Source of the DNA: Nitrospirota bacterium
GTDB lineage: Bacteria; JACPQY01
DNA length: 46,489 nt
Direction of reading: 5' to 3'
Assembly (NCBI GenBank): GCA_016180645.1
Contig: JACPAV010000010.1
Span: 62,001 to 108,489 of the forward strand
Shown piece by piece: positions 65-16,008 of this stretch. The notes below the pieces were generated by a model that saw only the letters and a program-made list of their open reading frames with translations, searched no databases and was not told where the DNA came from. Every line of letters begins with the position of its first letter. Within the stretch, counting starts at the first letter, position 1. The position numbers and the translations under genes were made by a program.

Positions 65-1606
65 TTGATCCTTCCGTTCTGGATCGTGCTGGGCGTGGTC
101 TTGCGCCTCCTCGTCGTGCCTCCTGAACCCGGCTTCGATGAGGTGTGGAGGCTTCTTTCGGCCGAAGCACCATGGCCGGATCTCTGGAAACGATCGTTGC
201 TCCTGCTCGGAGGCAACCCGGCCTACCCGGCCTTCTTGAAACTGTTTGGAATTGTCGACGAGGTCTCCCCCTGGAGTCGCTGGCCTGGAATCCTCGCCTT
301 CATGATGGGCATGTGGATGGCTTGGAGGATTTTTCGCCGTTGGTTCGGAAGTCGCATCGCCCAATGGACACTGGTGGCCCTCGCGCTAAGTCCCTTCCAA
401 GTGTTCCACGGTGTTTCGTTGAAGGAGTATTCGATCCTTCTGCCGGTCACTCTCTTGGGGACCTGGCTGGGATGGGAAGCCGCGCAGCCCGGCGGCAGGC
501 GAGGGTGGACGTGGTGCGCGCTTGCCGCGACGGAGGTGCTTGGAGTCCTTCTCGCGTTGCCCACGGCGTGGTTCTGGCTGGCCCTCGGAATCGCTCAGGT
601 GATCGTGCATGGCGTGCGCGGATTCCGATGGAGAAGCTGGATGGCGGCCCATGCCCCGGCCGCCCTGCTGGCGGGATGGACCATTGCTACGTGGAGCCAG
701 GGCTACCTGCCAGGTTTCCTCCATTTCGGCGGAACCGTCCGAAACGACGTCCTCAAATGGGCGACAGACCTCGTGGTGTACGTGCAGGTGTGGGTGTGGG
801 ATCCGCCGGCCCGCGTTCAACTGGGGCTCAGGGGAACCCCGCTCCCCGGAGGAGTGTTCACGGCCTATCACCTCCTTTGGTTCCTCAAACACATCCTGCC
901 ATGGCTGCTCGGACTTCCCATCCTTCTCCTCGGCTTCTTCGGCTGGCGGCGCGGCGCGCCCGTGCAACGGAGCAGCGGAGTTCTTGGATGGTGCTTCATG
1001 CTTGCCGTGGGCCCCGTTCTCGCCTACGGGATCTTTTTCGCGATCCTCGGACATCCCCATCTCATGTACGCTCGGGTATTTTACGGCTCATCCCCTTGCT
1101 TGTATGTGCTTCTTTCAATCGGCGCTGCCCGGTTGAGTGGAGGCGCGAGGTGGGTGATGGCGCCCATCTTGGGCGCCGCCGGAATATCTCTGATTCTGAT
1201 GAGCTTGGGGAGACATCCGGACCAGGAAAGGCCGCTCGGACCGACTCTTCGAAAGTGGGCGTCGGAGCTCGGGAATGGCGAGGTCGCCGCCGTTTTCCCC
1301 TCGGAGGCCTTTCCGTATGTGCGAAAACTCCTCCCGGAACCGGCTCGAGACAGGATCCGTCCGACGGAGATGAGGGCCGCGCGAGCGGACCTCTCCTGGG
1401 GGCCGACGTTGGTCGACCCCCGATACATCGAGGACTTGTCCTCCTGGAGGGATCCGGATGTTCGTTGGCTCCTGGTTGTCCCGTGGGCGCTCCATTGGAA
1501 GGATCCGGAATTGTCGAGCCTGCAAGACGGGCCGGTCGAATGGGATCTCACCGTCGAGAGACCCAACCTTCGCATCTACCGCCGTCGACAGCTGGGGATG
1601 CCATGA
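65..1606 (+). CDS. GT-C fold (ArnT/PMT_2, GT39/83-like) membrane glycosyltransferase, paralog 1
   Basis: Polytopic hydrophobic protein; acidic DE motif after TM1 (GFDEVWR), GGNPAY, SPFQV..LKEYS, C-terminal soluble domain. Frame is open back to position 2, so the true start may lie upstream. Confidence 0.75.
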   Translation: MILPFWIVLGVVLRLLVVPPEPGFDEVWRLLSAEAPWPDLWKRSLLLLGGNPAYPAFLKLFGIVDEVSPWSRWPGILAFMMGMWMAWRIFRRWFGSRIAQWTLVALALSPFQVFHGVSLKEYSILLPVTLLGTWLGWEAAQPGGRRGWTWCALAATEVLGVLLALPTAWFWLALGIAQVIVHGVRGFRWRSWMAAHAPAALLAGWTIATWSQGYLPGFLHFGGTVRNDVLKWATDLVVYVQVWVWDPPARVQLGLRGTPLPGGVFTAYHLLWFLKHILPWLLGLPILLLGFFGWRRGAPVQRSSGVLGWCFMLAVGPVLAYGIFFAILGHPHLMYARVFYGSSPCLYVLLSIGAARLSGGARWVMAPILGAAGISLILMSLGRHPDQERPLGPTLRKWASELGNGEVAAVFPSEAFPYVRKLLPEPARDRIRPTEMRAARADLSWGPTLVDPRYIEDLSSWRDPDVRWLLVVPWALHWKDPELSSLQDGPVEWDLTVERPNLRIYRRRQLGMP

Positions 1607-3165
1607 AGCGCGCGGCCCTGCTCGTGGTTCTCTTCATGTTGGGAGCCGGCGCGCGCGCGTTGTGGCTCCGGAGGGAGCCGACATTCGATGAGGTGTGGCG
1701 GCTTGAGGCGGCGAAAGCAAATGGGAGCGCCCTGTGGGGCGCCTCGGAGAAGCTGTTGGGTGGGAACGTCTTGTACCCGGCGGCCCTGAAGCTGTTTGGG
1801 ATCAGGTCCAAGGAAGGAGTGCGCCCCACACTCGTCATGCTGGCCGCCTTGAGCGCATCGATGGTCATGAGCTACCTCGTCTTCCAATCCATGTTCGGAC
1901 GGAGGGTGGCCACGGGGACGACGGCGCTGGTGGCCCTAAGCCCATTCCAGGTTGTCCATGGCGGTGAGCTGAAGGAGTATTCCCTCTTGCTCCCCTTCGC
2001 GCTCATGGCGGTCTGGGCGGGTTGGGGGTCATGCAGACCCAACGTGCGCCATCGGACATGGGTGCTCCTGTCCCTCTCAGAGACCGCGTGTGTGGGGTTG
2101 GCACTGCCCTCCGCCTATTTCTGCGCTGGATTGGGGCTGACTCAAGCGGTACTGGGCGGACGGGGTCTGTCGTGGACGAAATGGTTTCTGGCCCATCTCC
2201 CCCCCGCGCTTCTGTGCTTGAGCCAAGTCTGGGGCTGGCCCCCCGGCTATGAACGAGGTTTCCTGAACTTTGCCGTGAGCATGGACAATGGCCCGTTGAA
2301 GCTCGCTTCCGACGTGCTCTTCAACGTTGAGTTCTGGCTTTGGTCTCCCACCGTCGTCGAATGGCAACGGCTCTCGCATGAGCCGATGTTCGGAGGACTC
2401 GTGAATGCCGGTGCCTTCGTCCGGTTCCTCAGGGATGTCCTTCCGTGGTTCTTGGGACCTCCGGTGATCTTTGGAGCGATCGCTGGGGTCGTCCACTCTG
2501 GTCGCGGCCATGAACGGGAGGGGGGGAGGGCCGCGCTGTATTGCGGTCTCGTATCATTCATGCCGATCATCGCATACTTCGCCATCTTCGCGATTCGCGG
2601 CGCCCCACACCTGTTCCACCCTAGATCCTTCATGGCGGTAACTCCGGCGCTATACGCACTTCTTGTTCTTGGACTTCTCTCGCTCTCCGGATTAATGAGA
2701 GGGATCGCTCTTGGTGCCCTTGTGTGCGGACTGTTTCTGTCCTTGGCTCTCTTGCTGACGGGGAAGCATCCATCGCTTCTTCCCGATGCACGCCCCCTTC
2801 TCAACCGGGCGTACGAGGGGATGGGAGAGGGGAATGACGTGTGGGTGTACCCAAGCGAAGCCTATCCCTACGTGCTGCATCTTTCTCCCCCACCCGTACG
2901 CCCCCGGTTGCATCCCCTCAACCTCGATCCCAGACGGACGCGACCGGGTTGGGTCCCGACGCTCTTTAACGGCGCGTATCAGGAGGATTTTACCTTACTG
3001 GAGGGGGTGGCGGGGAACCCAGGGCTTATGGTAGTCACTTGGGCCCTGTACTGGCGAGATCGGGACTTGAAGCGGCTCGAGACGACACTCCACGGATGGG
3101 ATCTCGTGGAGTCCCAACCCAACCTCAGATTCTACCGGCGCCTCAGCTCGCCCCGGGGGAGCTAG
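1603..3165 (+). CDS. GT-C membrane glycosyltransferase, paralog 2
   Basis: ATG 1603 overlaps the previous stop (ATGA); TFDEVWR, GGNVLY, SPFQV..LKEYS; collinear with paralog 1. This is the C-terminal 520 aa of ORF 145..3165. Confidence 0.75.
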   Translation: MKRAALLVVLFMLGAGARALWLRREPTFDEVWRLEAAKANGSALWGASEKLLGGNVLYPAALKLFGIRSKEGVRPTLVMLAALSASMVMSYLVFQSMFGRRVATGTTALVALSPFQVVHGGELKEYSLLLPFALMAVWAGWGSCRPNVRHRTWVLLSLSETACVGLALPSAYFCAGLGLTQAVLGGRGLSWTKWFLAHLPPALLCLSQVWGWPPGYERGFLNFAVSMDNGPLKLASDVLFNVEFWLWSPTVVEWQRLSHEPMFGGLVNAGAFVRFLRDVLPWFLGPPVIFGAIAGVVHSGRGHEREGGRAALYCGLVSFMPIIAYFAIFAIRGAPHLFHPRSFMAVTPALYALLVLGLLSLSGLMRGIALGALVCGLFLSLALLLTGKHPSLLPDARPLLNRAYEGMGEGNDVWVYPSEAYPYVLHLSPPPVRPRLHPLNLDPRRTRPGWVPTLFNGAYQEDFTLLEGVAGNPGLMVVTWALYWRDRDLKRLETTLHGWDLVESQPNLRFYRRLSSPRGS

Positions 3166-4620
3166 GTCGGGAGGGGAGTGCGGTGGGGCCTGAAGGATCC
3201 TCAGCGCGGCGGGATTGAGGTTTCCGCGGTCTTTCAGAAGCATGAGCTTCAAAGTGGTCCAAGCCAGTTCGGGGAGGTGGGATTTCCGTGGATGATGGCG
3301 GACGATTCCCAGGAGTCGGCGGGCGTCCAGGTAGAATTCCCGGTAGGCCTCGGCCTGAAGCCGGTACAACCGATCCGTCGAAATCGCGCTCAGATTGAAT
3401 CGTGAATGAAAGTACTCGAAATCCCTGAACGAAGGCTTCTGTGCGCCGGGCTGGATTCGATACCAGTCCCCGAGCGCCGTTCCCGCAAAGGGGGTGACGA
3501 TGAAAAACATGGCCTGGGTGAGCGGCGACCGGACGGCGAAGTCAATCGTCGATCGGATCTCATCCTCGGTCTCGGACGGGAAACCCAGCATGAAGAAACC
3601 GTTCGTGAAAATACCGAGTCTCACCGATTCCTCGATCGTCCACTTCACGCGGTCCAGCTTGAGGTTTTTCTTGATCATGAGTTGCAATCGGGGCGTGACC
3701 GTTTCCACGGCCACGCAGAGGTACTGACAGCCGGCCTCCTTCGACTTTTCGAGGAACTCACGGTCCATCCGATCGCAGCGGAGGCCGTTGGGAAAGTGAA
3801 TCGCCGTCCCAGGACCGCGGGAAGCGATCCCGTCCAGAATGGTCTTGCCTCGACTCAGATCCCAGTTGAAAATATCGTCGACGATTTCAAAGTCCTTGAT
3901 GCCGTAGCGTCCGATGATCTCATCCACTTCGGCGAGCACGTTGTCCGGAGATCGGGGGCGGAAGTCCTTCCCGAAGTTCTCGTGGCAATACGTGCATCGG
4001 TACGGACACCCGCGCGAGGTGAAGAGGGCCATGTAGGGGCGACGGCCCATGGTGCTCATGCTCTTGAGGCTCCCATAGGCATGCACGTCAACCAGATCCC
4101 ACGCCGGGAAGGGAAGGGCATCTAGGTTCTCAATGGCATTCCGGCGCTTGGAGAAGAATACTCCTTTATCCCGTCGGAAGGCGATTCCATCCGTATCTTC
4201 CGGTCGCCCTCCTCCGAACCACTGCTCGACGAATTCGTGGAAGGTTTTCTCGCCCTCACCGATGCACAGGTAGTCGATCCGAGGGTCGGACAGGACTTCC
4301 CTGGGGTAGGACGAGGCGTGCGGACCCCCGACGATCACGGGAGTATCCGGGCAGCAGGCTTTGACTTGCGCCGCCGCCCAGTGCATCGCCGTAGCCTCGG
4401 CCGTCAGGGCACTCAACCCAACCAAGTCCGGTCTGAAGTCACGCAAAGTGTCGACCAATTCGCCGTACGGATGCTGATCGTAGCCAACATCGACAATTCG
4501 TACTTCGTGATGCGAATGCAGCCTCAAATAGGAAGCGAGATACATGAGCCCGAGAGGGGGCGTCATTCCGAAATTGTTGGGCGTGAGATAGCGCGCCTTG
4601 GCAAGTAGAATTTTCCCCAC
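2995..4620 (-). CDS. Cobalamin-binding radical SAM protein (class B methylase-like)
   Basis: PPLGLMYLAS and GGPHAS B12-binding N-domain; SRGCPYRCTYC CxxxCxxC; DDIF, FMLGFPSET. Start uncertain (GTG 4620; ORF open to 4659). Confidence 0.88.
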   Translation of the reverse strand: MGKILLAKARYLTPNNFGMTPPLGLMYLASYLRLHSHHEVRIVDVGYDQHPYGELVDTLRDFRPDLVGLSALTAEATAMHWAAAQVKACCPDTPVIVGGPHASSYPREVLSDPRIDYLCIGEGEKTFHEFVEQWFGGGRPEDTDGIAFRRDKGVFFSKRRNAIENLDALPFPAWDLVDVHAYGSLKSMSTMGRRPYMALFTSRGCPYRCTYCHENFGKDFRPRSPDNVLAEVDEIIGRYGIKDFEIVDDIFNWDLSRGKTILDGIASRGPGTAIHFPNGLRCDRMDREFLEKSKEAGCQYLCVAVETVTPRLQLMIKKNLKLDRVKWTIEESVRLGIFTNGFFMLGFPSETEDEIRSTIDFAVRSPLTQAMFFIVTPFAGTALGDWYRIQPGAQKPSFRDFEYFHSRFNLSAISTDRLYRLQAEAYREFYLDARRLLGIVRHHPRKSHLPELAWTTLKLMLLKDRGNLNPAALRILQAPPHSPPDLAPPGRAEAPVESEVGLGLHEIPSVECRLEPLQVPISPVQGPSDYHKPWVPRHPLQ

Positions 4621-4714
4621 TTCAGGAATCAAAGTACCAGATCGACGCAATGTTGACAAGGCCGTGTTCCAATGCCTGCTTGACGATGATAGGCGTCTAT
4701 GATGTGATCTAAGG

Positions 4715-6346
4715 GTGCGCGTTCTCTTCGTTTTTCGGAATTCGGAGTGGCTTGGAATCGAGTATCTTTCGGCGGTCTTGAAACGTGCGGGCCACGAAAC
4801 GGCCCTGCTTTACCACCCAGGGTGCGGCGAGGTGGAACGTGAAATCCCCTGGCTGGACAAGCTCCAATCCAGGCTGGGGATCGAACGGCTCATGTTGCGG
4901 CGAGCCGACCGTTTTGAACCCGACTTGATCGCCTTCTCATCCACAACCACCTTGTTCCCATGGGTGAAAAAGATGTCCAAGTACCTTAGGGATCGGCTCC
5001 AGGTACCCGTCTTGGTGGGTGGAATCCATCCTACCGTGGCCCCGGAGCACGTCCTGAAACATGACGGTATTGACATGCTGTGTCTGGGTGAAGGTGAGAA
5101 TGCCATCGGCGAACTAGTGGACAGCATGTCCAGAGGTGAGTCTCGGACCGACATTCCCAACCTGTGGTTCAAGCGCGGGGAAACCATCATACGCAATGAG
5201 ATCGGTCCACTGATCCAAGACATGGACAGCCTGCCCTATCCGGACAAGGACATCTATCTGCCCTATGGAATCATCCAGAATCGACTCCATGTGATGACAT
5301 CCAGGGGGTGCCCCTACTCGTGCTCGTACTGCTTCCACAGCTACTATCACGATCTCCACAAGGGGAAGGGGAAGTACTATCGCCGCCATAGCGTTGGCCG
5401 TGTCATCGAAGAGATTCTCCACTTCAGGCGGAAGCTCCGGTTCACTGAGATCTACTTCTATGACGACATCTTCACGATCCATGAACGCTGGGTGCAGGAG
5501 TTCGCGCGGGCCTACAAGAAAGAGGTGGGAGTCCCTTTCAAGATGTTGGTCTACCCCGAGTGGGTCCGAAGGGACACGATGCAGCTCCTCAAGGAGGCAG
5601 GCTGCTACTACGTTGATCTGGGCGTGGAATCCGGGAGCCGGAGGGTCCGGGAGGAGCTGATGAACCGACCGGTTCAGGATGAGAGCATGCACCGCGCGGC
5701 CGCCATCCTCCACGAACTGGGAATCAAGTTTGCGAGCCTCAACATTTTCGGGACTCCGGGAGAGACGGAAGCGGACATGCGCGCAACCTACGAACTGAAC
5801 ATGGAAATGAAACCGACGGGCGCGATCGGGAGCATCCTGTATCCCTTCCCCAGGACGACTTCGTACGATTACGCAAAGGCGAATGGGTTCCTGGATGCGG
5901 AGGGCGATGCGAAAGTGATCGAGGGACTCGGGTCGTACAAGGGATTTCCGGTTACGAAAATTCCTCACGCCGGCGCAGCCCTGAGATACATGCGTCTCCT
6001 TCCGTTGCTGGTCAAAGTGCCACGGGTGTTGCATCCGCTGTTGTTCCGCATGCCGTATTGGAGAGTGTTCGATTTCATCCTCCTGCCGTTCGTTTCGATT
6101 TGGAGGAACTTCTACATTAGGTCCAGGGAATTCGCCGGTGGTTTGTTGGGAAGTTGGCATCTCTACTTGGGTGAGATCTTCCGACGACCTCCACGGAGCC
6201 GGCCGAAGGTTGGGTGGGCAAGCTCTGGGAGGCGTGCGCATGTTGAATTCTCCCCATCCCTCACGGCCCCGCCGCCGATCAGGCTTCTCACGGACGTCGC
6301 GGCACCCGCGGTCACGGATCAATCGGTCGCCCCACCTGCGGCCTGA
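4715..6346 (+). CDS. Cobalamin-binding radical SAM protein (class B methylase-like)
   Basis: LGIEYLSAVLK, GGIHPT, GEGE; SRGCPYSCSYC; DDIF, GVESGS, IFGTPGET. Confidence 0.9.
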   Translation: MRVLFVFRNSEWLGIEYLSAVLKRAGHETALLYHPGCGEVEREIPWLDKLQSRLGIERLMLRRADRFEPDLIAFSSTTTLFPWVKKMSKYLRDRLQVPVLVGGIHPTVAPEHVLKHDGIDMLCLGEGENAIGELVDSMSRGESRTDIPNLWFKRGETIIRNEIGPLIQDMDSLPYPDKDIYLPYGIIQNRLHVMTSRGCPYSCSYCFHSYYHDLHKGKGKYYRRHSVGRVIEEILHFRRKLRFTEIYFYDDIFTIHERWVQEFARAYKKEVGVPFKMLVYPEWVRRDTMQLLKEAGCYYVDLGVESGSRRVREELMNRPVQDESMHRAAAILHELGIKFASLNIFGTPGETEADMRATYELNMEMKPTGAIGSILYPFPRTTSYDYAKANGFLDAEGDAKVIEGLGSYKGFPVTKIPHAGAALRYMRLLPLLVKVPRVLHPLLFRMPYWRVFDFILLPFVSIWRNFYIRSREFAGGLLGSWHLYLGEIFRRPPRSRPKVGWASSGRRAHVEFSPSLTAPPPIRLLTDVAAPAVTDQSVAPPAA

Positions 6347-6502
6347 GCGTGGAGTGGGGGGATCCGCCCCGCAGGCTGTGTTTCAAGAACGTCCGTGTGA
6401 TACAACGCGTGGGTGAGGCGGTCTCGCGCATCGTTCCGAAGGCCTCGGGTGGAAGAAGAGTTGCGAAGTTTCCCCCGCCCTGCTGAATTCTGAGAGAGTC
6501 TG

Positions 6503-8044
6503 ATGTCCCTCCCACCTGCCGTCCGAGCGTTGCTGATCTGGATGCTGGGCATGAGTCTCCGCCTCCCCCTTCTAGGGCGGGAACTGAACCTCGATGAGAT
6601 AAAAAGATGGCAATCGGCGACGGGTCCGCTGGGGGAGCTGTGGGATCGGTCGATCATCCTGCTGGGGGGGAATCCACTCTATTCGCTGTTTCTTAGACCG
6701 TTTTCGGGACTGGAACCGACCGTGTGGATCCGGCTACCCGGATTATTGGCTGGGGCCATGGTTGCGCCGTTGGCCTACGCGATTCTGAGGAAGAATTTCG
6801 GCGAACGGATTGCATTGGGTTCGGCTGCGATACTGGCCTGCTCGCCGTTCCAGGTCGAGCAGGGCGCCCTCCTGAAAGAGTATCCTCTGGCCCTTGTCCC
6901 CGAGACCCTGACGTTGTGGTTTGCGGCAAGACTGGTGGCCGTAGGAGGCGGCCCCGGGCTTTGGGCGGCCATCGCCGCGGCCGAAACGGTTTCCGTTTGG
7001 TTGTCGCTCCCCTCGATCTTCGTTTGGGGTGGGCTGGCGGCGGCCTTGCCCCTGGCGTGGCATCGAACCAAGAAGTTCCCCTGGGGCCATTGGCTTTGCA
7101 GTCAAACCCCTGTGCTTGCGTCTGGGATCGTGACCGCCTTGAGTTGGCCGCATGGAAACGAAGCAGGTTTTCAGCAGGTCGTCGGGCGGCTGCACCTCGA
7201 TCCTCTTTCGCTCGCGGCGCAAGAATTGACCGGCCTGGCCGCGTGGTATCCGAATCTGGATGTACGCTTACAAGACTTTCTGACCGCAATGAATTGGGCG
7301 GATGCCTACGGGCATTTCGAGGGGATCATCAAGATTGTCTATTTTCTTGCCAAGATTGGCCTCGGGGGAGGAGTCGTCATTCTTGTTCTGAGGGCCTGGA
7401 CTCGATATAGCGATAGCGCGCCGCTGAAGCTTTTCGCATGGACGGTGGGGTTGGCCCCCTTCCTCTATTACATCGCGTTCCTCGCGCGTGGCTACGGCCA
7501 TCTTTACTTGCCTCAGGCGTTCCTCGCTTCATCCATGGGGCTGACCACGCTTCTCGCCGCCGGGTTCGAGGCGCTATCGTCCCCATGGAAGAGGATTATC
7601 GGATTGGGGTTGGGGGCGGCCTCCGTGCTGTCGCTGTTGACGCTCTTGGCTGGCGTGTGGCCCCACCCCTACCGCCCCGTCCGGCCCCTCCTGAGCCGAC
7701 TGCCGCACGGTACGCCTGCATGGATTTACCCTGCCGACGCGGTGCACTACATCCGTTACAACGCGCCCCCGCCTAGGAGGAAATCCATCCGTTCTCTCGG
7801 GCCGACCGCGCTGGAGAGGCCGGACACGTGGAAACCGATTTTTGAAATCGCCTCACGGCAAGTCGCGAGGGAAGCGCTTCGAAAACTGCCGAGGGGGGAG
7901 GCCGCGCTTGTGGCCGTGAGGTCCTACCTGCAATGGAGCGATCCGGACCTCGCTGCGGTGGATCCATGCAGATGGGCGCTCGACGCGCAAGATGGGGACG
8001 TGTGGATCTTCAAATCCACGCCACCCAAGGAGAAGTGCCCATGA
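6503..8044 (+). CDS. GT-C membrane glycosyltransferase, paralog 3
   Basis: LNLDEIKRW, GGNPLY, SPFQV..LKEYP, WIYP..A..Y, WSDPDL. Confidence 0.75.
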   Translation: MSLPPAVRALLIWMLGMSLRLPLLGRELNLDEIKRWQSATGPLGELWDRSIILLGGNPLYSLFLRPFSGLEPTVWIRLPGLLAGAMVAPLAYAILRKNFGERIALGSAAILACSPFQVEQGALLKEYPLALVPETLTLWFAARLVAVGGGPGLWAAIAAAETVSVWLSLPSIFVWGGLAAALPLAWHRTKKFPWGHWLCSQTPVLASGIVTALSWPHGNEAGFQQVVGRLHLDPLSLAAQELTGLAAWYPNLDVRLQDFLTAMNWADAYGHFEGIIKIVYFLAKIGLGGGVVILVLRAWTRYSDSAPLKLFAWTVGLAPFLYYIAFLARGYGHLYLPQAFLASSMGLTTLLAAGFEALSSPWKRIIGLGLGAASVLSLLTLLAGVWPHPYRPVRPLLSRLPHGTPAWIYPADAVHYIRYNAPPPRRKSIRSLGPTALERPDTWKPIFEIASRQVAREALRKLPRGEAALVAVRSYLQWSDPDLAAVDPCRWALDAQDGDVWIFKSTPPKEKCP

Positions 8045-9588
8045 CCCGTGAGGGCGGTCCGCACTCCCCCGGCGTACCCGCTTGGGTGTGGGGCGCTGCC
8101 GCTGCGAGCGGTCTCGTGGCAGTCTACCTGGCTACCACACAGGACCTTTCATTTGACGAGGCGAACCGCTGGTTTCTTTCGCAAAGACCTCCGGCGGAAA
8201 TCGTCCGCCTCAACGTCAATATCACTCAGGGGAACGAGCTGTTCCTTCTCTTCCTCCACGGGGCGGGTGCGGTCGTGTCGTCTCCCCGCTTCTGGAGGCT
8301 TGTCAGCCTCCTGGCCCACGTCGCGGCGGTGACTCTGTCCTGGCGGATTTTCAGTGAACATTCCGTCCGGACCGCCGGCTTCGTTGCCCTCTGGATCGCC
8401 GCCTCGCCCCTACACCTCTCGGAAGCCTATGATCTGAAGGAATACAGCCTTGGCGTCCTCCTGGGATTGGGGATCGTGCATTTCTCGGCGCCGGGGCGCA
8501 CAACCTCGCTGACGAAGGTTGCGCTGCTGGGTTTGGTGGAGGCGGCCGGGACCGGTGTTACACTTGCGATGTCTCCGTTCTGGGGTGCGGTCGCCCTTGG
8601 CCAAATATGGCTCCAGCCGGGAAAATGGGGTCGGAAAGGGTTGGTTCTCCTGCTCCAGCATCTACCCATGGCCCTCCTCACGGCCTTCACGCTTTGGAGA
8701 TGGGACCCACGATACAAGCCGCTTTTCCGGGTGATGAATGGTGAAATCGTCCGGAACGACCCCTTGAGAATCATTGGTGATTTCTTTGCCCACGTCTACG
8801 TCTGGTCGGGCCTTCCGGGTACGCCGGATGTGAGTCCGTGCGGCTCTCCACCACCGGAATGGTTCTGGCCGGTTTTGGGGATGGGTGCCTGGGTGGTCGG
8901 TGGATCCCTCTTTGTCCTGATCGGGGCCGGCATGGCGGGGCGGGGTGGGAACGACGGTCGGCGACTTGTCCTCTGGTGGGGGTGGCTCGGTCTGGCTCCC
9001 CTCGGTATCTATTATCTTGGATCGCTCCTGCTTGGCTCCCCGCATGTGTACCCGAGTCGAATGTATCTGGCGGCTTCGCCGTTCGTCTTCGGGGCGGTGG
9101 GCGTGGGGATAAGCGCGCTGCCAAAGGCTCTCGGGGCGATCCTGTTCGCGCCGGCCGCCGTCAGTGCCGTTCTCATGATGGGCCTGCTGATTTTCGGGCA
9201 TCATGCCGCTCAGCCCGACCGATTGAAGCGACTTCTCTCGCCATATTCCTCATCCCTCGAACCCCGCGATCCAGTCTACGTCTACCCTGGCGTGGCCTTT
9301 CATCAGGTATTGAGCAATGCGCCCGGGGTGTGGAGGGAACATCTGCGGGCGGTCGGGAACAACATTCTTGAAGAGCCGCTGGGTGACGGCTCCCTGGTGG
9401 CACCCGCCCATGAGAATGAGTTGTCGGTTTGGGCGGACCAACTCTCGTCTCCGGAACAGGGATGGTTGATCCTGTATCCCCAGTTCCTGATCGTGCGGGA
9501 TCCCGCCCGGAGTGTCTTGCGCCGCTCGGGAAAAGAGTGGAGATTGGCGGGGTGCAACCGAACGGCCGCTCTCTACCGGACGCCGTGA
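8041..9588 (+). CDS. GT-C membrane glycosyltransferase, paralog 4
   Basis: ATG 8041 overlaps the previous stop (ATGA); LSFDEANRW, QGNELF, SPLHL..LKEYS, YVYP. Confidence 0.75.
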   Translation: MTREGGPHSPGVPAWVWGAAAASGLVAVYLATTQDLSFDEANRWFLSQRPPAEIVRLNVNITQGNELFLLFLHGAGAVVSSPRFWRLVSLLAHVAAVTLSWRIFSEHSVRTAGFVALWIAASPLHLSEAYDLKEYSLGVLLGLGIVHFSAPGRTTSLTKVALLGLVEAAGTGVTLAMSPFWGAVALGQIWLQPGKWGRKGLVLLLQHLPMALLTAFTLWRWDPRYKPLFRVMNGEIVRNDPLRIIGDFFAHVYVWSGLPGTPDVSPCGSPPPEWFWPVLGMGAWVVGGSLFVLIGAGMAGRGGNDGRRLVLWWGWLGLAPLGIYYLGSLLLGSPHVYPSRMYLAASPFVFGAVGVGISALPKALGAILFAPAAVSAVLMMGLLIFGHHAAQPDRLKRLLSPYSSSLEPRDPVYVYPGVAFHQVLSNAPGVWREHLRAVGNNILEEPLGDGSLVAPAHENELSVWADQLSSPEQGWLILYPQFLIVRDPARSVLRRSGKEWRLAGCNRTAALYRTP

Positions 9589-11123
9589 AGCCCTCGGGCA
9601 CTATCCCGAAGGTGGTGATGGCCGCGGCTGTCTTGTCCTGCCTGCTCGCGTGCAGATTGGCATTCCGCGAAGAACTCAGCCCGGACGAAATCCACCGCTG
9701 GCTGCTCGCCCAACTTCATCCGAGGGACATGTTTCAAATGGCGCGGAGCATCACCGGCGGCAACGAGCTCTTCCTCCTCATGACGAGGGTATTCGTGGCG
9801 ATCCACTGGTCCCCCCTCGCGGTGCGGGTTGCCAATGTGCTGATCCATGGCCTGACGGTTCTCCTGGCGTACCGTTGGTTCAGTGCATGGTTGGGCCGGC
9901 GCGTGGCGGGATTCGTGGCCATCTGGATCGCAGGGTCGCCCCTTCATGTCTATGAAGCATACGACCTCAAGGAATACAGCGGTGCGGTGTTGATCGGTCT
10001 GTGGGCGGTCCGGCTGGGCCTGGAGTCCCCGGAGCCGGCTCTGAAGCGGTCCATCCAACTCGGCTTGATCCAGATGGCCGGCACGGCCTTTACGCTGACG
10101 TTGGGACCGTTTTGGGGGGCATACGCGGTGACGCAATGTCTCACGGCGCAAAAGCGTTCAAGAAGATGGATGGCCCTGATGGTCCTTCAGCACGCTCCTT
10201 GGATCCTCATCGGGCTTCTGACCCTCCATCGGTGGGATGCGGCATATCGGCCCATCTACTTCAGCCTCCATGCGCAGGCGCTGAGCAGCAATCCCCTCAA
10301 GATCGTGGCCGACTTCTTTTCCCACGTCTACTTGTGGGTGTGGCTGCCTTGGGCCCAGCAGCCTGTCGAATGCGTCCCTCCGATGGCTCACTGGCTGTCG
10401 AACGGTTTCGCGATTGGACAGTGGGTGATTGGAGGGCCGCTCCTTCTGGCCTTTTTTTGGCCCTCGAACACCCATCGGCAGGAGAAGGATTTGCCTGCGG
10501 CGAAGTGGTGCTACCACTTGCCTATCTGGCACCTGGCCCTGTATCTTGCCGCTACGGGCATCATGGGAAGTCCGCATTGGTACATTCCCCGTGTGTACCT
10601 CGCCAGTTCCCCATTCGTATTCGCCCGCATCGCGGCAACCCTCGGAGAGCGGAAAGTCGGGTGGAGAATCGTCATGCTTGTGCCGGCGGCGCTCGCTGCC
10701 TTGGTTTCCATGATTGGGCTTGTCCGAGGGACCCACCCGTCACAGCTTCCCTCGCTACGCAAGTCTCTCCAGTCCGCGCAGGGGGAACTTCAAGGCGTGG
10801 GGCCGATCTACATTTATCCCGGCACGGGATTCCACTATGTTCAGACCTACGCGCCTCCTGATGTTCGCAGCCGCCTTCGACCGGTGTGGAAGGACGTGAT
10901 CGAGGACCCCTCAGGGTGGGGCACGATCCTGGCACCGATCTCCCCGGAGGAAAAAGCCCGATTCAAGGCTGAACTTACCGGCCAAGAGGACGCTTGGCTC
11001 ATAGGGCTGCCGGACCTTCTCTCCTTCCGGGATCCGCACCTCAGCATCATGCAGTCGAGCGGGAGACAATGGAAAACGCTCTCATGTTCTTCGCACCTGC
11101 TGCTGTACCGCAGTCTGCCATAG
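9585..11123 (+). CDS. GT-C membrane glycosyltransferase, paralog 5
   Basis: GTG 9585 overlaps the previous stop (GTGA); LSPDEIHRW, GGNELF, SPLHV..LKEYS, YIYP; most similar to paralog 4 (shared EAYDLKEYS, DFFxHVY). Confidence 0.75.
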   Translation: MKPSGTIPKVVMAAAVLSCLLACRLAFREELSPDEIHRWLLAQLHPRDMFQMARSITGGNELFLLMTRVFVAIHWSPLAVRVANVLIHGLTVLLAYRWFSAWLGRRVAGFVAIWIAGSPLHVYEAYDLKEYSGAVLIGLWAVRLGLESPEPALKRSIQLGLIQMAGTAFTLTLGPFWGAYAVTQCLTAQKRSRRWMALMVLQHAPWILIGLLTLHRWDAAYRPIYFSLHAQALSSNPLKIVADFFSHVYLWVWLPWAQQPVECVPPMAHWLSNGFAIGQWVIGGPLLLAFFWPSNTHRQEKDLPAAKWCYHLPIWHLALYLAATGIMGSPHWYIPRVYLASSPFVFARIAATLGERKVGWRIVMLVPAALAALVSMIGLVRGTHPSQLPSLRKSLQSAQGELQGVGPIYIYPGTGFHYVQTYAPPDVRSRLRPVWKDVIEDPSGWGTILAPISPEEKARFKAELTGQEDAWLIGLPDLLSFRDPHLSIMQSSGRQWKTLSCSSHLLLYRSLP

Positions 11124-11131
11124 CCCGCCCG

Positions 11132-12691
11132 GTGGTGGGTTCAGCGGATCGGCGTTTTCTCCTCGGGCTTGTGCTGCTCTCTTCAACCGTCGGCGGTGTG
11201 CTTGCGTTCAAGATGGATCTAAGTGTGGACGAATTGCATCGTTGGGAACTGGCGGGTGGCAATTGGGGGGACCTTTGGGACGGGAGCAGGAGAATCCTTG
11301 GCGGCAACGTTCTCTATGTGGCATGGCTGAAGATCCTCCGGGGTTTTTCCATTTCCCCCCAAGCGGCTCGTTTGATTGGATTACTGGCGCATGCGGCGGC
11401 CATCCCGCTGTGGTTCACCTGGGTTCTCGCGCGGCTTGGCCGGATGCCGGCGCTTCTATCTTCGGCATGGATGGCGGCATCTCCTCTACATGTCTTTGAA
11501 TCCTACCCCTTGAAAGAAACATCTCTTGTATTCCCCTTCGTGCTTTGGACGCTCACGGTGGGGCTGGGTAAACGCTTGCGCTGGAGTCGCGTGGCGCTTC
11601 TCGCCCTGGCCGAGGCATTGATCGTAGGCTTCTCGTTGACGGCAGCGCCGGTTTTCGCGGCCGCGTTCATGGCCAGGTTCCTCTCGACAAGGCGTCTCGA
11701 TGTTCGATCGATTCTCCAACCTCTGCCGATGCTCGTGGTGGGAGCGCTCACGGTGTTCACGTGGGATCCGACATTTCGAGAATCTTTCACCCTCTTCGCC
11801 TCCCGAATGTCACACGACCCGATCGCGCTGTTGATCGACCTGGTGGCCGATGTCGAGGCTTGGCGGTGGGTGGAGTTGGCCCGATCGAATCCATTTCCGT
11901 GCTCCGCGCCTCCAAGTGAAACGGCCTTGTGGGTCATGCGCGGGGTGGAGGTTTCGACCGGAGGGTGCCTCCTTGCCCTGCTCGCGCGAGGTCTGGGCGG
12001 CGGTACCGCCGGGTTTGGACGGGGGCCGGTTCTTCCTTTTGCCTGCCTCGCCTTCCTACCCTTGCTCTTCGAAGGCGCCGCTTCCGCCTTGAGAGGGCAT
12101 TTCGTTCTCTACCAGGCGCGGGGGTTTCTCTATGCCACTCCCTTCCTCTATGCGATCCTTGCACAAGGGGTGACGAGAGGACCGGCGGATGGGTGGAGAA
12201 GATGGAGCGTCTTGGCGGCGCCGTTGCTGCTCCTATCGCTGGGAGCGTACGCCATGGCCCTGGCCGGGTTTCACCCGCACACCCTGCGCCCCTTGGGAGC
12301 ATGGGATCGCAAAGTGAAGGAGTCCATCGGCGACCAAGGTCGAATCTTCGTTCACCCGTCCATCTACGCGCGCTACATTGCGATGAATGGGGGCGCTGCG
12401 CTACGCAGGAGAAGCCTGCCCTTGGGGCCGGAACCGCTCGCCAGCCCCCAGGGTTGGCTGACTTTGATGTCTCCGCTTGATGAAATGGAGTGGCGTTCGA
12501 TCACAAGCCCTTTGACTCGAAATGACCACGTCCTGGTTCTCGCCGCGGGTCTGCCTTGGCGGGATCCCCATTTCCAACTGGGCAGGGATTCATGCCGCGA
12601 ATGGAGCCTGGAATGGTGCGATTCGAGAATGGCCATCTACGGGATCGTGGCGGAGACGCCGAGTTGCACACGTCAGCCGGCCGACCGGTGA
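11132..12691 (+). CDS. GT-C membrane glycosyltransferase, paralog 6
   Basis: Probable GTG start 8 nt after the previous stop; LSVDELHRW, GGNVLY, SPLHV..LKETS, WRDPH. Confidence 0.72.
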   Translation: MVGSADRRFLLGLVLLSSTVGGVLAFKMDLSVDELHRWELAGGNWGDLWDGSRRILGGNVLYVAWLKILRGFSISPQAARLIGLLAHAAAIPLWFTWVLARLGRMPALLSSAWMAASPLHVFESYPLKETSLVFPFVLWTLTVGLGKRLRWSRVALLALAEALIVGFSLTAAPVFAAAFMARFLSTRRLDVRSILQPLPMLVVGALTVFTWDPTFRESFTLFASRMSHDPIALLIDLVADVEAWRWVELARSNPFPCSAPPSETALWVMRGVEVSTGGCLLALLARGLGGGTAGFGRGPVLPFACLAFLPLLFEGAASALRGHFVLYQARGFLYATPFLYAILAQGVTRGPADGWRRWSVLAAPLLLLSLGAYAMALAGFHPHTLRPLGAWDRKVKESIGDQGRIFVHPSIYARYIAMNGGAALRRRSLPLGPEPLASPQGWLTLMSPLDEMEWRSITSPLTRNDHVLVLAAGLPWRDPHFQLGRDSCREWSLEWCDSRMAIYGIVAETPSCTRQPADR

Positions 12692-12699
12692 GCAGGACC

Positions 12700-13419
12700 A
12701 TGCCGCGCACCCTCTCGATTATCATCCCTGCGTTCAATGAGGAATCCAGTATCGAAGAGGTAATCCGAAGGGTGGAACGGGTGGATATTGCATTCCTGGG
12801 CGTTGAAAAGCAGATCGTCGTGGTCGACGACGGCTCCACGGATGGCACCGTCTCGAAGGTGAGGTGTTCCGGAAGGGTCTCAGTCGTTCGGCATCCGCAT
12901 CGCCGAGGAAAGGGAAGCGCCATCCGGACCGGGCTGGCGCATGCAACGGGTGATCTTGTCCTCATTCAAGACGCGGACCTGGAGTACGATCCTTCCGACT
13001 ACCCATGCCTTCTGGATCCCATGCTGAAGGGTGCCGCCCGCGTGGTATATGGCTCCCGATTTCTGCTGAGGCGACGTCCGGAGGGAATGCGGCTCGCGTT
13101 CCTGGGGGCCAATCGTATCCTGACCCTTCTCGCGAATGTTCTCTATGGCGGCCGCCTTACGGACATGACCACGTGTTACAAGCTGTTTCGTACGGAGGAT
13201 CTGCGCGCGATGGACATCGAGGCTGAAGGATTCGAGTTCTGTCCCGAGGCCACGGCGAAATTGAAAAGAGCGGGGGTAGACATCATGGAAGTACCAGTCT
13301 CGTACCAAGCCAGGCAGTCGAAGGGAGGGAAAAAGCTCAGGTGGTGGGATGGTCTCGCCGTTGTCAAGTCGCTTTTCGAGTGGCGCTTCCGAAGGGTCGC
13401 GTCAATTGCACGCGCCTGA
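12700..13419 (+). CDS. GT2 glycosyltransferase, DPM1/polyprenol-phosphate sugar synthase-like
   Basis: LSIIIPAFNEE, VVDDGSTDGT, GKGSAIR, IQDADLEYDP, VYGSRF, TDMTTCYK, GKKLRWWDG; ATG 12700 preceded by AGGA (alternative GTG 12688). Confidence 0.9.
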   Translation: MPRTLSIIIPAFNEESSIEEVIRRVERVDIAFLGVEKQIVVVDDGSTDGTVSKVRCSGRVSVVRHPHRRGKGSAIRTGLAHATGDLVLIQDADLEYDPSDYPCLLDPMLKGAARVVYGSRFLLRRRPEGMRLAFLGANRILTLLANVLYGGRLTDMTTCYKLFRTEDLRAMDIEAEGFEFCPEATAKLKRAGVDIMEVPVSYQARQSKGGKKLRWWDGLAVVKSLFEWRFRRVASIARA

Positions 13420-14497
13420 ATTCCAGTTCGTACGCGTCGGCCACGGCTTCCCAACAATAGAGGCGAAGGGCGCGGTCACGGGCGACCGCACGGCGGCGAA
13501 CGGACGACTGCCCATCGCGGATGGCCTCCTGAATTACACCGAGGAGGCTCCTGGAGGTTTTCTGATAGTAGAGTCCATCCTCGCCCAGGACTTCTCGGTT
13601 AAATGGATTGTCGAGAGCGGCGACCTCGCATCCGGAGGCCATGGCTTGGATGAGGGCCGGATTTGTCCCCCCGACCTCGCATCCGTGAATATAGATCCTA
13701 GAGTTGCACCGCAATTCCTGAAGTACTCCCGGATCGTATATGGGGCCGAGGAAGTGGATTCTACCATTGGCATACCGATGTAGCTGCGTCACGTATCGGC
13801 TCCGATAGGATGCCCACCCTACCACCGCAAGTTGGAGAGGCGAGGGGGCAGAGGCCCACGCTTCACACGCCAGGAGCACATTGTTTTCCGGCTCGAGCCG
13901 CGTGACGATCAGGCCATAGCTTTGCGGAGTAAGGTGGAAATGGTTCGCCAGCAAGGCCGCATTGCGGGACGACTCCGGAACCGCTCCGTACGGGATGTAG
14001 GAGGAATCGGCAAAGTATGTGGATCGATAATAGTCGGCCAATACCTTGGAATCGCAGACAAGGACCTGGCTCCACTTGGCGCATGATCGGGCGCTCCACC
14101 GGTAGTAAGCCTTGGAAGTCGGCCCCCATTTGGCCCTAAGCCAATCCATCCCCCCCACGTTTGTAACAACGGGTATGCCAAAGGCATTCAAGAGAAGAAT
14201 AAGCGGTGCATGCGCCACGTTGAAAAGAAGGACCGCGTCCGGCTTCTCGCGAACTACATGTGGGAGGGCGAGAACGGTTGCGGATAAGATGTGGAGGTGC
14301 TTGGTCGGTATGCTGGGCATGTGCCGAAGCCGAACTCCGAGGTGCTCCTGGGGACGATCCGGGTACAGGCTCCTGTCACAGAATACAGTTACTTCATGCC
14401 CCCGGGCCACCAGCCTGGCAGATACTTCCTGGGCACACATCTCCATCCCGCCGTACCGGCAAGGGATGCCTTTTGTGCCGAGAATGGCAATCTTCAT
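13364..14497 (-). CDS. GT4 glycosyltransferase with DUF1972-type N-terminus
   Basis: MKIAILGTKGIPCRYGGME, RLEPENN, GCEVGGTNPALIQAMASG, DNPFNREVL. Confidence 0.85.
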   Translation of the reverse strand: MKIAILGTKGIPCRYGGMEMCAQEVSARLVARGHEVTVFCDRSLYPDRPQEHLGVRLRHMPSIPTKHLHILSATVLALPHVVREKPDAVLLFNVAHAPLILLLNAFGIPVVTNVGGMDWLRAKWGPTSKAYYRWSARSCAKWSQVLVCDSKVLADYYRSTYFADSSYIPYGAVPESSRNAALLANHFHLTPQSYGLIVTRLEPENNVLLACEAWASAPSPLQLAVVGWASYRSRYVTQLHRYANGRIHFLGPIYDPGVLQELRCNSRIYIHGCEVGGTNPALIQAMASGCEVAALDNPFNREVLGEDGLYYQKTSRSLLGVIQEAIRDGQSSVRRRAVARDRALRLYCWEAVADAYELEFRRVQLTRPFGSATRKAT

Positions 14498-14504
14498 GCC
14501 GGTC

Positions 14505-15272
14505 TCAGCGCTCGGAGGTCAGCGGTCGAGCCGGGAAGGTCCTGCTCAACGCGCGCAGGGATCCAACGGCCCTATATTCTCGAACAATGGTGAGCAGAAA
14601 CCTGGCGCCTTGGGTCGGGATATGAAGCTTGGAACGACCGATCCGGGCGCGTGCCTGAATGTGCATTTCGCCTATTCTGATTCCTCGTGCGACGGCCCGG
14701 AGTGTCATCGCGAGGCCGTAGTCAAAACCGTCCGGCAACGTGCCCACCTCTTCCAAGAACCCCCGCCTGAAGGACCTCATCCCGGAAGTGGGATCAATCA
14801 GGCGATGGTCGTACAGCAACGTGATGGCGGCTCTAAACAAGCGGTTCCCCAATTTTCGAATAGGGTCCAGATGACCGGAAAAGTCTCCATAGCGGGCACC
14901 GATTACCAGTTCGGCATCTGAACTCAGGGTTTCTTGGACAAGAGCAGAGAGCGCCCCAGGTGGGTAGGAGTGGTCGCCGTCCAGCATGGCCAAGACGGTT
15001 CCTCGAGCGGCCGCAAATCCAGTCCGCAGAGCAGCGCCGTATCCCCGTCGGTGCGGGTGCCGAAGGACGCCGACCCCCGTGAGGCTGGAAAGGACATCGG
15101 CGGTCCCGTCGTCCGACCCGTCATCGATAAGCAGTACTTCCGTTGAACGGATCTTGGGTAAAGACCGAAGAATGATCTCGCATGCCGCAAGAGTTTCCTC
15201 AACGACAAAGTGTATGGCTCTTGCTTCATTGAAGACCGGGATGACGATGGATAGCTGATCCCTACCTTTCAC
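14505..15272 (-). CDS. GT2 glycosyltransferase (DPM/DPG-synthase-like)
   Basis: LSIVIPVFNE, IDDGSDDGT, GYGAALRTG, LDGDHSYP, DPTSGMR, RIGRSKL. Confidence 0.87.
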   Translation of the reverse strand: MKGRDQLSIVIPVFNEARAIHFVVEETLAACEIILRSLPKIRSTEVLLIDDGSDDGTADVLSSLTGVGVLRHPHRRGYGAALRTGFAAARGTVLAMLDGDHSYPPGALSALVQETLSSDAELVIGARYGDFSGHLDPIRKLGNRLFRAAITLLYDHRLIDPTSGMRSFRRGFLEEVGTLPDGFDYGLAMTLRAVARGIRIGEMHIQARARIGRSKLHIPTQGARFLLTIVREYRAVGSLRALSRTFPARPLTSER

Positions 15273-15736
15273 CCTGCACCAATCCTCTCATCTGACTGTG
15301 GCTGGGCGAGAGTCTGAGCAGATAGGCGGCTTCTCCATCCCTACGATGAGCTTCGTGACGCACAGGGCGGGAGTTGGTGCGGGGCCATTGTCCAAGTATA
15401 GGTTTCGTGGGGCTGTGATTCAAGCTGCCCTGGCGGACCAGCGAAAAATCACCCCCCTCTGGGATCTCGGTTGCGGCGCCGTCCCCAAGACTCTTGGGGG
15501 ACGAATCTGGTCTTGGCATGCCACTACCGCCCGTGTCCGGGCTGGGGGGGGAACGAAGGGCGGCGAGGACGTGCTCCAAACGGTGGACCAATGCGCGGTT
15601 GTGGAGTTGAGAATCTGCCCGTTCGGGTGAAGACGTATGTCAAAGAGGCCAAGGAACCGGAAATTCCGAAGCGGTATCCCTGATCTTGCGCGCTTCGTGG
15701 CAGGAACAAGGTGGATGGGACAACCTGCGGGCCGAT

Positions 15737-15953: not shown

Positions 15954-16008
15954 GGAACGATGGGGTCGCCATTGCAACTTGAATTACGCGGGGGTCACTG
16001 TTCCGTAG
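15775..16008 (+). pseudogene. lpxH: Truncated lpxH copy (first ~60 codons, then unrelated tail)
   Basis: LLGDLILSDVHLRG...REYYP nearly identical to the N-terminus of 17521..18282; diverges after 15953. Confidence 0.85.

Follow-up and report, generated by a model that had tools for sequence, protein, structure and literature searches.

A tandem array of six GT-C glycosyltransferase paralogs with two B12-binding radical SAM genes: a candidate lipid-linked glycosylation system in a Nitrospirota bacterium

What might a bacterium do with six diverged copies of one membrane glycosyltransferase gene set in a single array, and what is the part of two cobalamin-binding radical S-adenosylmethionine (SAM) genes that lie among them? 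The question is raised by a contig of a Nitrospirota bacterium (JACPAV010000010.1, assembly GCA_016180645.1, positions 62,001 to 108,489). The whole stretch that was analyzed, 46,489 nucleotides (nt) in length, is called the window here, and all coordinates refer to it. Within 65-15272 we found eleven genes: six paralogous glycosyltransferases of the GT-C class, two B12-binding radical SAM proteins, two short glycosyltransferases of family 2 (GT2), and one glycosyltransferase of family 4 (GT4). Cell envelopes are shaped by glycosylation outside the cytoplasm with polyprenyl-phosphate sugars as donors, as in the modification of lipid A, the side chains of O antigens, arabinan, and the mannosylation of proteins. 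We give a probability of roughly one-half to the reading that the cluster encodes a lipid-linked, extracytoplasmic glycosylation system in which class B radical SAM enzymes modify the donor sugar before it leaves the cytoplasm. The parts of this reading differ in strength: The synthesis of polyprenyl-phosphate sugars by the GT2s and their transfer by the GT-Cs probably form one system; whether the radical SAM enzymes belong to the same pathway is an even call; and as to their acting on the sugar once it is lipid-linked, we lean against it.

Open reading frames (ORFs) across the window were assigned by Pfam and NCBIfam scans. All six paralogs are on the forward strand: P1 (65-1606, 513 amino acids [aa], with a TTG start that is also that of the stored database protein), P2 (1603-3165, 520 aa), P3 (6503-8044, 513 aa), P4 (8041-9588, 515 aa), P5 (9585-11123, 512 aa from a GTG at 9585), and P6 (11132-12691, 519 aa). 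P1 begins 64 nt inside the window edge, and the genes 5′ of the array lie outside the window. A preliminary description of the locus had reported six tandem polytopic paralogs of ∼510-520 aa with three 4-nt stop/start overlaps, a DPM1-like GT2, a GT4, and a second GT2 following directly, and two cobalamin-binding radical SAM genes interrupting the array. Coordinates, domain matches, and solved relatives bear out this arrangement except in one overlap. The six frames are intact and full-length (512-520 aa), have ∼11 predicted transmembrane (TM) segments, and align end to end with 26 invariant columns. Pairwise BLAST comparisons among them give 23%-39% identity at E-values from 2e-9 to 9e-104, far past chance. 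P1 and P2 are 39% identical (E 3e-93) and P4 and P5 37% (E 9e-104); P3 is 29%-32% identical to P1 and P2, and P6 shares 26%-29% identity with the remaining five. The ATGA stop/start overlaps at 1603-1606 (P1/P2) and 8041-8044 (P3/P4) are real, and the stored database proteins share both starts. A GTGA is also present between P4 and P5 (9585-9588), but this third overlap is uncertain because it depends on the start chosen for P5: The stored protein starts at a GTG at 9552, which yields 523 aa and a 37-nt overlap instead. The gap between P5 and P6 is 8 nt.

Only P1 exceeds the cutoff of the Pfam family PMT_2 (PF13231; GT39/GT83-like), with 28.9 bits against 26.1; P3 falls short of it at 24.5 bits; P2, P4, P5, and P6 have no Pfam match at E ≤ 0.01; and none of the six matches any NCBIfam model. 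A profile of the six paralogs alone reaches no solved structure (best E 0.015, to an irrelevant entry). With a family profile of 79 sequences, ArnT (5ezm) is reached at E 3e-6, the match covering ∼360 residues, and AglB is reached at E 4e-4. Of 30 distant relatives, 25 match PMT_2 at E ≤ 1e-3, and 21 score at or above the gathering cutoff.

By running AlphaFold2 on the 79-sequence alignment, we modeled P1 and P5, one from each subclade of the array, the other four paralogs being assigned by homology. Both models are helical bundles, with a predicted local distance difference score (pLDDT) of 89.9 for P1 and 90.9 for P5 and a predicted TM-score (pTM) of 0.91 for each. In Foldseek searches of the Protein Data Bank (PDB) at E ≤ 1e-3, all 30 matches of P1 and all 28 of P5 are GT-C enzymes or complexes that contain one: oligosaccharyltransferase (OST) complexes, ArnT, AglB, PglB, AftD, AftA, ALG9, ALG12, DPY19, and, for P5 only, Pmt4. 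The matched chains of the OST complexes (640-700 residues) are presumably STT3. ArnT (5f15) fits P1 best (TM-score 0.56/0.54) and is the top match of P5 (E 5.6e-7). The first unrelated matches have a probability of at most 0.38 for P1 and 0.21 for P5, with a TM-score of ∼0.1. As judged from these predicted models, the six paralogs are GT-C fold enzymes, which agrees with the proposal in the preliminary description.

GT-C enzymes are described as polytopic, with 7-13 TM helices, in PMC11127046. Alignment-averaged hydropathy of the paralogs gives ∼11 TM segments, within that range, together with a 51-residue loop after TM1, a further 55-residue loop at residues 209-263, and a 134-residue C-terminal soluble domain. 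The loop after TM1, which is predicted to be extracytoplasmic, carries an Asp-Glu pair at residues 25-26; D25 is present in all 79 family sequences and E26 in 78, and R72 (77/79), Y122 (76/79), and R337 (74/79) are nearly as constant. The pair aligns with the "PDEGRY" segment of ArnT. The Asp of that segment is the proposed catalytic residue of ArnT, and a DE motif has this role in protein mannosyltransferases (PMTs).

The subfamily to which the six paralogs belong is very rare. An HMMER scan of 1.84 billion representative proteins returned 3358 matches at E ≤ 1e-3 and only seven at E ≤ 1e-30. Six of these seven are the window's own genes, and the seventh is a protein that we call P0134. In a maximum-likelihood tree the six paralogs and P0134 form one clade (support 99/99), from which it follows that the array arose by old duplications within this GT-C subfamily. 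The tree resolves the subclades (P1,P2) (99/98) and (P6,(P4,P5)) (100/98), with P4 and P5 as a pair at 100/99, and leaves unsettled the places of P3 and of P0134, which is either nested or sister. Monophyly of the six alone is not rejected by the approximately unbiased (AU) test (p = 0.40). P0134, the only close outside relative, is 872 aa long, with a C-terminal extension of ∼380 residues that has no Pfam match. A "QQSDGSWP" stretch in this extension may resemble the QW repeat of the prenyltransferase/squalene-cyclase α-toroid domains.

Next to the array are two candidates for the enzymes that would supply its donors. GT2a (12688-13419, forward strand, 243 aa) may be joined to P6 by a further GTGA at 12688-12691, and GT2b (14505-15272, reverse strand, 255 aa) lies beyond the GT4 gene. 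Both match Pfam Glycos_transf_2 (E 1.5e-30 and 3.4e-28); GT2a has no TM segment, and GT2b is likewise soluble. The best PDB match of each is the dolichol-phosphate-mannose synthase of Pyrococcus furiosus (5mlz; E 9e-19 for GT2a and 1e-11 for GT2b), followed by ArnC, GpgS, and GtrB for GT2a and by ArnC for GT2b. Their top partial matches in NCBIfam, all below cutoff, are AglJ, PpgS, a dolichyl-phosphate hexose transferase, and ArnC for GT2a and AglJ, the dolichyl-phosphate hexose transferase, and PpgS for GT2b. The curated ArnC model (PRK10714, cutoff 529) is missed by both (53.7 and 48.1 bits). From these homologies, "DPM1-like" appears a fair label, and the two may be described as similar to polyprenyl-phosphate sugar synthases. 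The GT4 between them (13364-14497, reverse strand, 377 aa) has a DUF1972-type N-terminal part and resembles Cps2T: It matches Glyco_trans_4_4 (E 1.5e-19), DUF1972 (E 1.3e-12), and Glycos_transf_1 (E 4e-8) and scores 156 bits against the NCBIfam Cps2T β-1,4-rhamnosyltransferase model (cutoff 500); no PDB entry matches its sequence at E ≤ 1e-5.

The two radical SAM genes lie between P2 and P3 and are divergent, with a 55-nt spacer. rS1 (2995-4659, reverse strand) is a 554-aa ORF whose start is possibly a GTG at 4620; it matches the Pfam families B12-binding (PF02310, E 1.9e-22) and Radical_SAM (PF04055, E 1e-18) and has CPYRCTYC at residue 218. rS2 (4715-6346, forward strand, 543 aa) matches Radical_SAM at E 2.6e-20 and B12-binding at E 8.9e-19 and has CPYSCSYC at residue 199. 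Both thus have the class B architecture, an N-terminal B12-binding domain before a radical SAM core with CxxxCxxC, and homology supports their placement in class B. They are 29% identical to each other. Their best partial matches in NCBIfam are ApyD (157 bits, cutoff 750) and HpnJ (139 bits, cutoff 578) for rS1 and HpnJ (123.5 bits, cutoff 577.6) for rS2; neither protein reaches an NCBIfam cutoff of the named class B subfamilies (HpnJ, BchE, ApyD, PhpK, HpnR, and others). The closest solved sequence relatives of both are AprD4, the radical SAM protein 9ccb, and TokK, with TsrM, CysS, and OxsB lower. In NCBIfam, AprD4, the best of them, bears the name of a diol-dehydratase of the radical SAM type and not that of a methylase. 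Ring contractions and cyclizations are likewise known among class B members. PMC9204698 places class B methylases in the gentamicin, fortimicin, and moenomycin pathways and notes several enzymes of the class that are no methylases. The rS2 family is large: Of 8000 candidates that were scored, at least 1186 match at E ≤ 1e-10. The top one is 55% identical, and the closest set of protein homologs (P0009-P0030) spans 42%-55%.

A hydrophobic C-terminal stretch in rS2 (residues 446-490) is a weak hint of membrane association. The 3′ ends of the convergent P2 and rS1 share 171 nt (2995-3165), which could be a true overlap, the result of run-on ORFs in GC-rich DNA, or a sequencing frameshift; both radical SAM ORFs have proline-rich C-terminal tails past the region aligned with homologs. 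These genes lie in the lowest-GC stretch of the window (4001-6000; 0.57 compared with 0.58-0.63 elsewhere), and GC content at third codon positions is 0.71-0.73 in the cluster genes against 0.75-0.79 in two downstream genes checked (lpxH-like and coaBC), a mild difference.

Gene order favors a tie between rS2 and the transferases. It is likely the first gene of the same-strand run rS2-P3-P4-P5-P6-GT2a, in which neighboring genes overlap or are separated by at most 156 nt. Rfam detected neither a cobalamin riboswitch nor any other RNA family, and promoter-like sites are not enriched (five observed, 4.6 expected from shuffled sequence).

A similar association recurs in other genomes. Scanning 185,579 species representatives, among which the source genome is not included, with an rS2-family alignment gave 76 loci. 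Neighbors were counted with small home-made profiles over the genes within 6 kb of the anchor radical SAM gene, without a matched random-locus control. The closest rS2 relatives among the genomes scanned are in two loci. In L001, from a Nitrospinae metagenome-assembled genome (MAG) (43% identical to rS2), the order is radical SAM gene, sugar epimerase/dehydratase, 236-aa AglJ-like GT2, PMT_2 GT-C, B12-binding radical SAM gene, methyltransferase, another PMT_2 GT-C, GT4, GFO-type oxidoreductase, and radical SAM gene. In L002 (45% identical) it is radical SAM gene, 586-aa polytopic protein, epimerase, GT2, B12-binding radical SAM gene, and radical SAM gene; this GT2 shares 40% identity with GT2a (E 1e-56) and is located two genes, or ∼2.7 kb, away from the relative of rS2. 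The next two loci by profile score, L048 and L003, also have short GT2s and sugar-modifying enzymes, so that a GT2 lies within 6 kb in each of the four best-scoring loci.

Across the 76 loci, we observe a GT2 in 21, a GT4 in 20, an epimerase in 13, another B12-binding radical SAM gene in 23, a polytopic protein of at least 400 aa in 26, and a GT-C profile match in seven, one of them weak (L015, E 4e-4); the majority of loci have none of these. The six or seven GT-C-positive loci represent five to six phyla of bacteria and archaea and come from Nitrospinota, Patescibacteria of the candidate phyla radiation (CPR) (L008 and L049), Elusimicrobiota (L068), Methanosarcinales (L041), a Pacearchaeote (L047), and, weakly, Coatesbacteria (L015), and Pfam confirms PMT_2 or PMT in six of the seven. 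By chance, a PMT_2 gene would presumably fall in such a neighborhood in ∼1% of loci. With distance from the radical SAM gene, GT4 density drops from 0.49 to 0.09 per 10 kb and GT2 density from 0.43 to 0.23-0.32. The link of these radical SAM genes with GT2 and GT-C genes looks non-random, and the pattern would fit a conserved donor module (a radical SAM gene and a short GT2, with or without an epimerase) that is combined with lineage-specific transferases. Two of the loci hold small membrane proteins that are candidate flippases and have no equivalent in the window: a 117-aa EamA-like protein directly before a PMT_2 GT-C gene and a 313-aa GT2 in L008 (4375-7381), and a DUF2304 protein after a short GT2 in L068 (11356-12400). 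In L006, L035, L061, L007, L018, and L068, three to six paralogous B12-binding radical SAM genes stand in tandem; these loci are from MAGs of Omnitrophota, Anaerolineae, Planctomycetota, Bdellovibrionota, and Elusimicrobia.

A number of observations weigh against the proposed system. Most rS2-family loci have no GT-C (69 of 76) or no GT2 (55 of 76) within 6 kb, and the link between radical SAM genes and glycosyltransferases therefore holds for a subset of the family only. The synteny for which the preliminary description proposed a search is borne out in part: rS2 relatives do lie near short GT2s and, in seven of the 76 loci, near GT-C genes, but these GT-Cs belong to other subfamilies than the window's paralogs, subject to the caveat of long branches. 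The polytopic proteins of L002 and L048 match the family profile in hhalign only at E 0.2 and 0.15 and no Pfam family. rS1 has no clear ortholog in the syntenic loci; its best matches are 28%-34% identical and are spread across many radical SAM arrays. Both radical SAM proteins score four- to fivefold below every curated NCBIfam cutoff. Taken singly, the paralogs barely register as PMT_2: one of six at the cutoff, and four of six with no Pfam match. Mean identity among them is 24%-33% in all regions, with the periplasmic parts diverging no faster than the membrane core; this even divergence gives no sequence sign of acceptor specialization. Among the window ORFs scanned there is no flippase (GtrA, SMR/EamA/ArnEF, MATE, or Wzx), the window starting 64 nt before P1, and the cluster has no priming phosphoglycosyltransferase or nucleotide-sugar gene, the only one in the window being rmlD, 15 kb away.

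The mixed context of the large rS2 family also lends itself to another explanation, namely that the radical SAM genes stand outside the glycosylation pathway and are linked to the GT-C genes by position only, their products acting on something else, for example a lipid of the membrane, a peptide, or a cofactor. Many of the loci are tandem arrays of B12-binding radical SAM paralogs with little else (L006, L035, and L061), the best partial NCBIfam matches include enzymes of lipids and of ribosomally synthesized and post-translationally modified peptides (HpnJ, a ladderane-type lipid radical SAM enzyme, and ApyD), and rS1 is on the opposite strand from the array. We nevertheless regard this explanation as unlikely. 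L001 and L002 keep the radical SAM gene beside an AglJ/ArnC-like GT2, which in L002 is recognizably related to GT2a; four GT-C genes and GT2a follow rS2 on the same strand in one run; GT2 and GT4 densities peak next to the radical SAM gene; and the cluster, in the scan of window ORFs, has no precursor-peptide, tetrapyrrole, or lipid-synthesis gene.

If the radical SAM enzymes do take part in lipid-linked glycosylation, the pathway may be pictured in four steps. In the first, by homology, GT2a and GT2b would take one or two sugars from their nucleotide-activated forms and attach them to polyprenyl phosphate on the cytoplasmic side of the membrane. In the second, the sugar would be altered by rS1 and rS2 at a carbon that is not activated, through addition of a C-methyl group or through a rearrangement, for example a contraction of the ring; the substrate may be the nucleotide sugar or the sugar already linked to polyprenyl phosphate. 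The two enzymes must work in the cytoplasm because they depend on an Fe-S cluster and on SAM. This second step is the weakest of the four and is suggested by the conserved gene neighborhood and by precedents. A flippase encoded outside the window would then move the donor outward, and, finally, the six GT-C paralogs would pass the sugar or sugars to periplasmic acceptors, their fold and motif being in evidence and their activity and acceptors conjectural. They might build or decorate one glycan in sequence or might serve several acceptors. More speculatively, the Cps2T-like GT4 may act in the cytoplasm to elongate a primer or acceptor that is linked to a lipid.

There are precedents for the tailoring of lipid-linked sugars. 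To our knowledge, the enzymes that alter such a sugar before its export are epimerases and a deformylase. PMC11127046 describes epimerases of the pentofuranose three-component systems, and DprE1/E2, as acting on undecaprenyl- or decaprenyl-phosphate sugars before flipping. Radical SAM precedents are HpnJ and the calditol synthase Cds, for which a ring contraction of lipid-linked hexoses is proposed in PMC13459092. In the HpnI/HpnK/HpnJ pathway to the hopanoid cyclitol ether, and with Cds, a glycosyltransferase first attaches a sugar to a lipid, and this lipid-linked sugar is next remodeled by a radical SAM enzyme, HpnJ at least being of class B (PMC13459092 and PMC9204698); HpnJ is also the best partial NCBIfam match of rS2 and the second best of rS1. 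The two differ from the window's system in that rS1 and rS2 remain four- to fivefold below the HpnJ cutoff, the window has no hopanoid genes, and the lipid is here presumed to be a polyprenyl phosphate carrier and not the end product.

In its overall logic the cluster resembles the GtrA/GtrB/GtrC and GT136 pentofuranose systems, which combine a polyprenyl-phosphate-sugar synthase, a GT-C, and optional auxiliary enzymes that act before export (PMC11127046). Of these three-component elements, the GT-C transferase is present in the window and a flippase is not in view, and GT2a and GT2b are homologous to DPMS, ArnC, GtrB, AglJ, and PpgS while scoring below every curated cutoff. The window differs further in having B12-binding radical SAM enzymes instead of epimerases as auxiliaries and a six-fold transferase of another GT-C subfamily. 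Mycobacterial and corynebacterial sets (Emb, Aft, PimE, and Mpt, with Ppm1 and the synthesis of decaprenyl-phosphate arabinose [DPA]) share with the proposed system the plan of several GT-Cs in one organism that draw on polyprenyl-phosphate monosaccharide donors and assemble a glycan on the outer side of the membrane; the structural matches of the paralogs include AftD, AftA, AftB, and EmbC, and PpgS is a partial match of GT2a and GT2b. Their enzymes, however, belong to other, much larger GT-C families, and the host of the window is a diderm bacterium, carrying Mla, MreBC, and RodA, in which we see no arabinose or mannose pathway genes within the window.

A different acceptor is envisaged if the six paralogs are PMT-type protein O-glycosyltransferases, each serving a set of periplasmic or surface proteins, and not builders of a polysaccharide or glycolipid. 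PMT_2 is the only Pfam family that they touch, and Pmt4 is among the structural matches, with weaker E-values (7e-3 for P1 and 3.6e-4 for P5). Short soluble Ppm1/DPM1-like synthases partner Pmt in Actinobacteria, according to PMC5882110. PMT_2, however, takes in a wide range of enzymes, among them ArnT-like transferases for lipids and glycans; Pmt4 ranks below both ArnT and OST; and the Pfam scan found no MIR or tetratricopeptide repeat (TPR) domain. We consider this explanation improbable.

The closest characterized relative is ArnC/ArnT, which adds L-Ara4N to lipid A, and the locus might then be an ordinary ArnT-type lipid A or lipopolysaccharide (LPS)-core modification locus and hence a known system. 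In both cases a GT2 would load undecaprenyl phosphate, the product would be flipped, and a GT-C would carry out the transfer in the periplasm; in the Arn pathway the sugar is tailored on its lipid by ArnD. ArnT is the best structural match of P1 and the top one of P5, and no other solved bacterial structure is matched significantly by the sequence profile; GT2a and GT2b both count ArnC among their highest-ranking solved relatives; and an LpxH-like gene lies ∼2 kb downstream. The differences are nevertheless considerable. The window has six GT-C paralogs in place of one, and two class B radical SAM enzymes, all foreign to the Arn pathway; its GT2s lack C-terminal TM helices; no NCBIfam model of the Arn pathway is reached, GT2a missing that of ArnC tenfold; the families expected of ArnA, ArnB, ArnD, ArnE, and ArnF are not among the window ORFs scanned; and the subfamily profile finds only seven of 1.84 billion representatives at E ≤ 1e-30. 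This makes an Arn locus quite improbable. Weakest of all is the idea that some copies are inactive duplicates or non-catalytic partners in a smaller functional system, which their divergence to 23%-39% identity and the four copies without a Pfam match might suggest, but which is made highly improbable by six intact frames that all keep D25, E26, K120, E121, and 22 other invariant positions, by an EL1 catalytic loop that is the best-conserved region (mean identity 33%), and by confident folds for both subclades.

Nor does the locus look like a standard O-antigen locus: As the preliminary description had stated, wzx, wzy, wzm, and wzt are not among the window ORFs scanned, in which the sole ABC ATPase belongs to the Mla operon and the sole SEDS protein is RodA. 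The best explanation is that the proposed lipid-linked system is a relative of ArnC/ArnT, GtrB/GtrC, and other three-component systems, expanded to six transferases and two class B radical SAM enzymes. Its GT-C subfamily and the six-fold array are new members of this group, and the recurring neighborhood of radical SAM, GT2, and GT-C genes could prove to be the part that is truly new. The view that the cluster matches no characterized pathway is upheld by the curated NCBIfam models, none of which is reached, and by the literature searched, which covered few subscription-journal papers and in which neither this combination nor any other of a B12-binding radical SAM enzyme with a GT-C or with polyprenyl-phosphate glycosylation is described. 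The words polyprenol, undecaprenyl, and dolichol are absent from a 2026 review on radical SAM enzymes in lipid modification. A further record, 10.1101/765248, concerns nitrogenase paralogs and was set aside as irrelevant.

The rest of the window is ordinary chromosome, with coaBC, dcd, pyrF, a class II tRNA synthetase, ispG, cca, a wax-ester synthase, rmlD, mlaEFD, mreBC, PBP2, and rodA. The IspG protein shares 78% identity with that of a MAG labeled Nitrospirae, in keeping with a tentative placement of this uncultured diderm host near the Nitrospirota. Just beyond the cluster is a direct repeat of 217 nt, 96% identical, at 15737-15953 and 17483-17699. Its first copy is within a 123-aa LpxH-like N-terminal fragment (15637-16008), and its second forms the 5′ end, with a promoter-like site, of a full LpxH-like gene (17521-18282). 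Between the copies are a HEPN gene (15995-16399) and a nucleotidyltransferase gene (16401-16922), both on the reverse strand and likely a HEPN/MNT toxin-antitoxin pair. The arrangement looks like an insertion that duplicated the 5′ end of lpxH. Small ORFs at 15298-16146 were considered as a flippase and rejected, being not hydrophobic; the LpxH-like fragment and the HEPN/nucleotidyltransferase pair are located there. The WS/DGAT wax-ester synthase/acyltransferase gene (29189-30628) adjoins rmlD, and at 43230-46096 a DUF6502 gene is followed by a 678-aa ORF that has no family match save a weak one to a collagen-flanked surface repeat.

Taken to its widest form, the proposal would be that enzymes of the rS2 clade tailor polyprenyl-phosphate sugars, through methylation at carbon or through contraction of the ring to give a carbasugar or cyclitol, and so make a new class of lipid-linked donor that lineage-specific GT-Cs install in the envelope. 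The module of radical SAM gene and short GT2, with or without an epimerase, would then be a hitherto undescribed pathway that is widespread among uncultured bacteria and archaea (Nitrospinota, CPR, Elusimicrobiota, DPANN, and Methanosarcinales), and the six-paralog array would be its most expanded set of transferases. This is a tentative proposal, and we think it rather doubtful. Were it true, the radical SAM/cobalamin step would add C-C bond chemistry to the tailoring of lipid-linked sugars, and it would predict C-methylated or ring-contracted envelope sugars that nobody has sought in these uncultured lineages. It would also give a concrete role to part of the large pool of uncharacterized B12-binding radical SAM proteins in CPR, DPANN, and similar genomes. 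The locus itself defines a GT-C subfamily and accounts for six of the seven members that the profile scan detects in 1.84 billion representative proteins.

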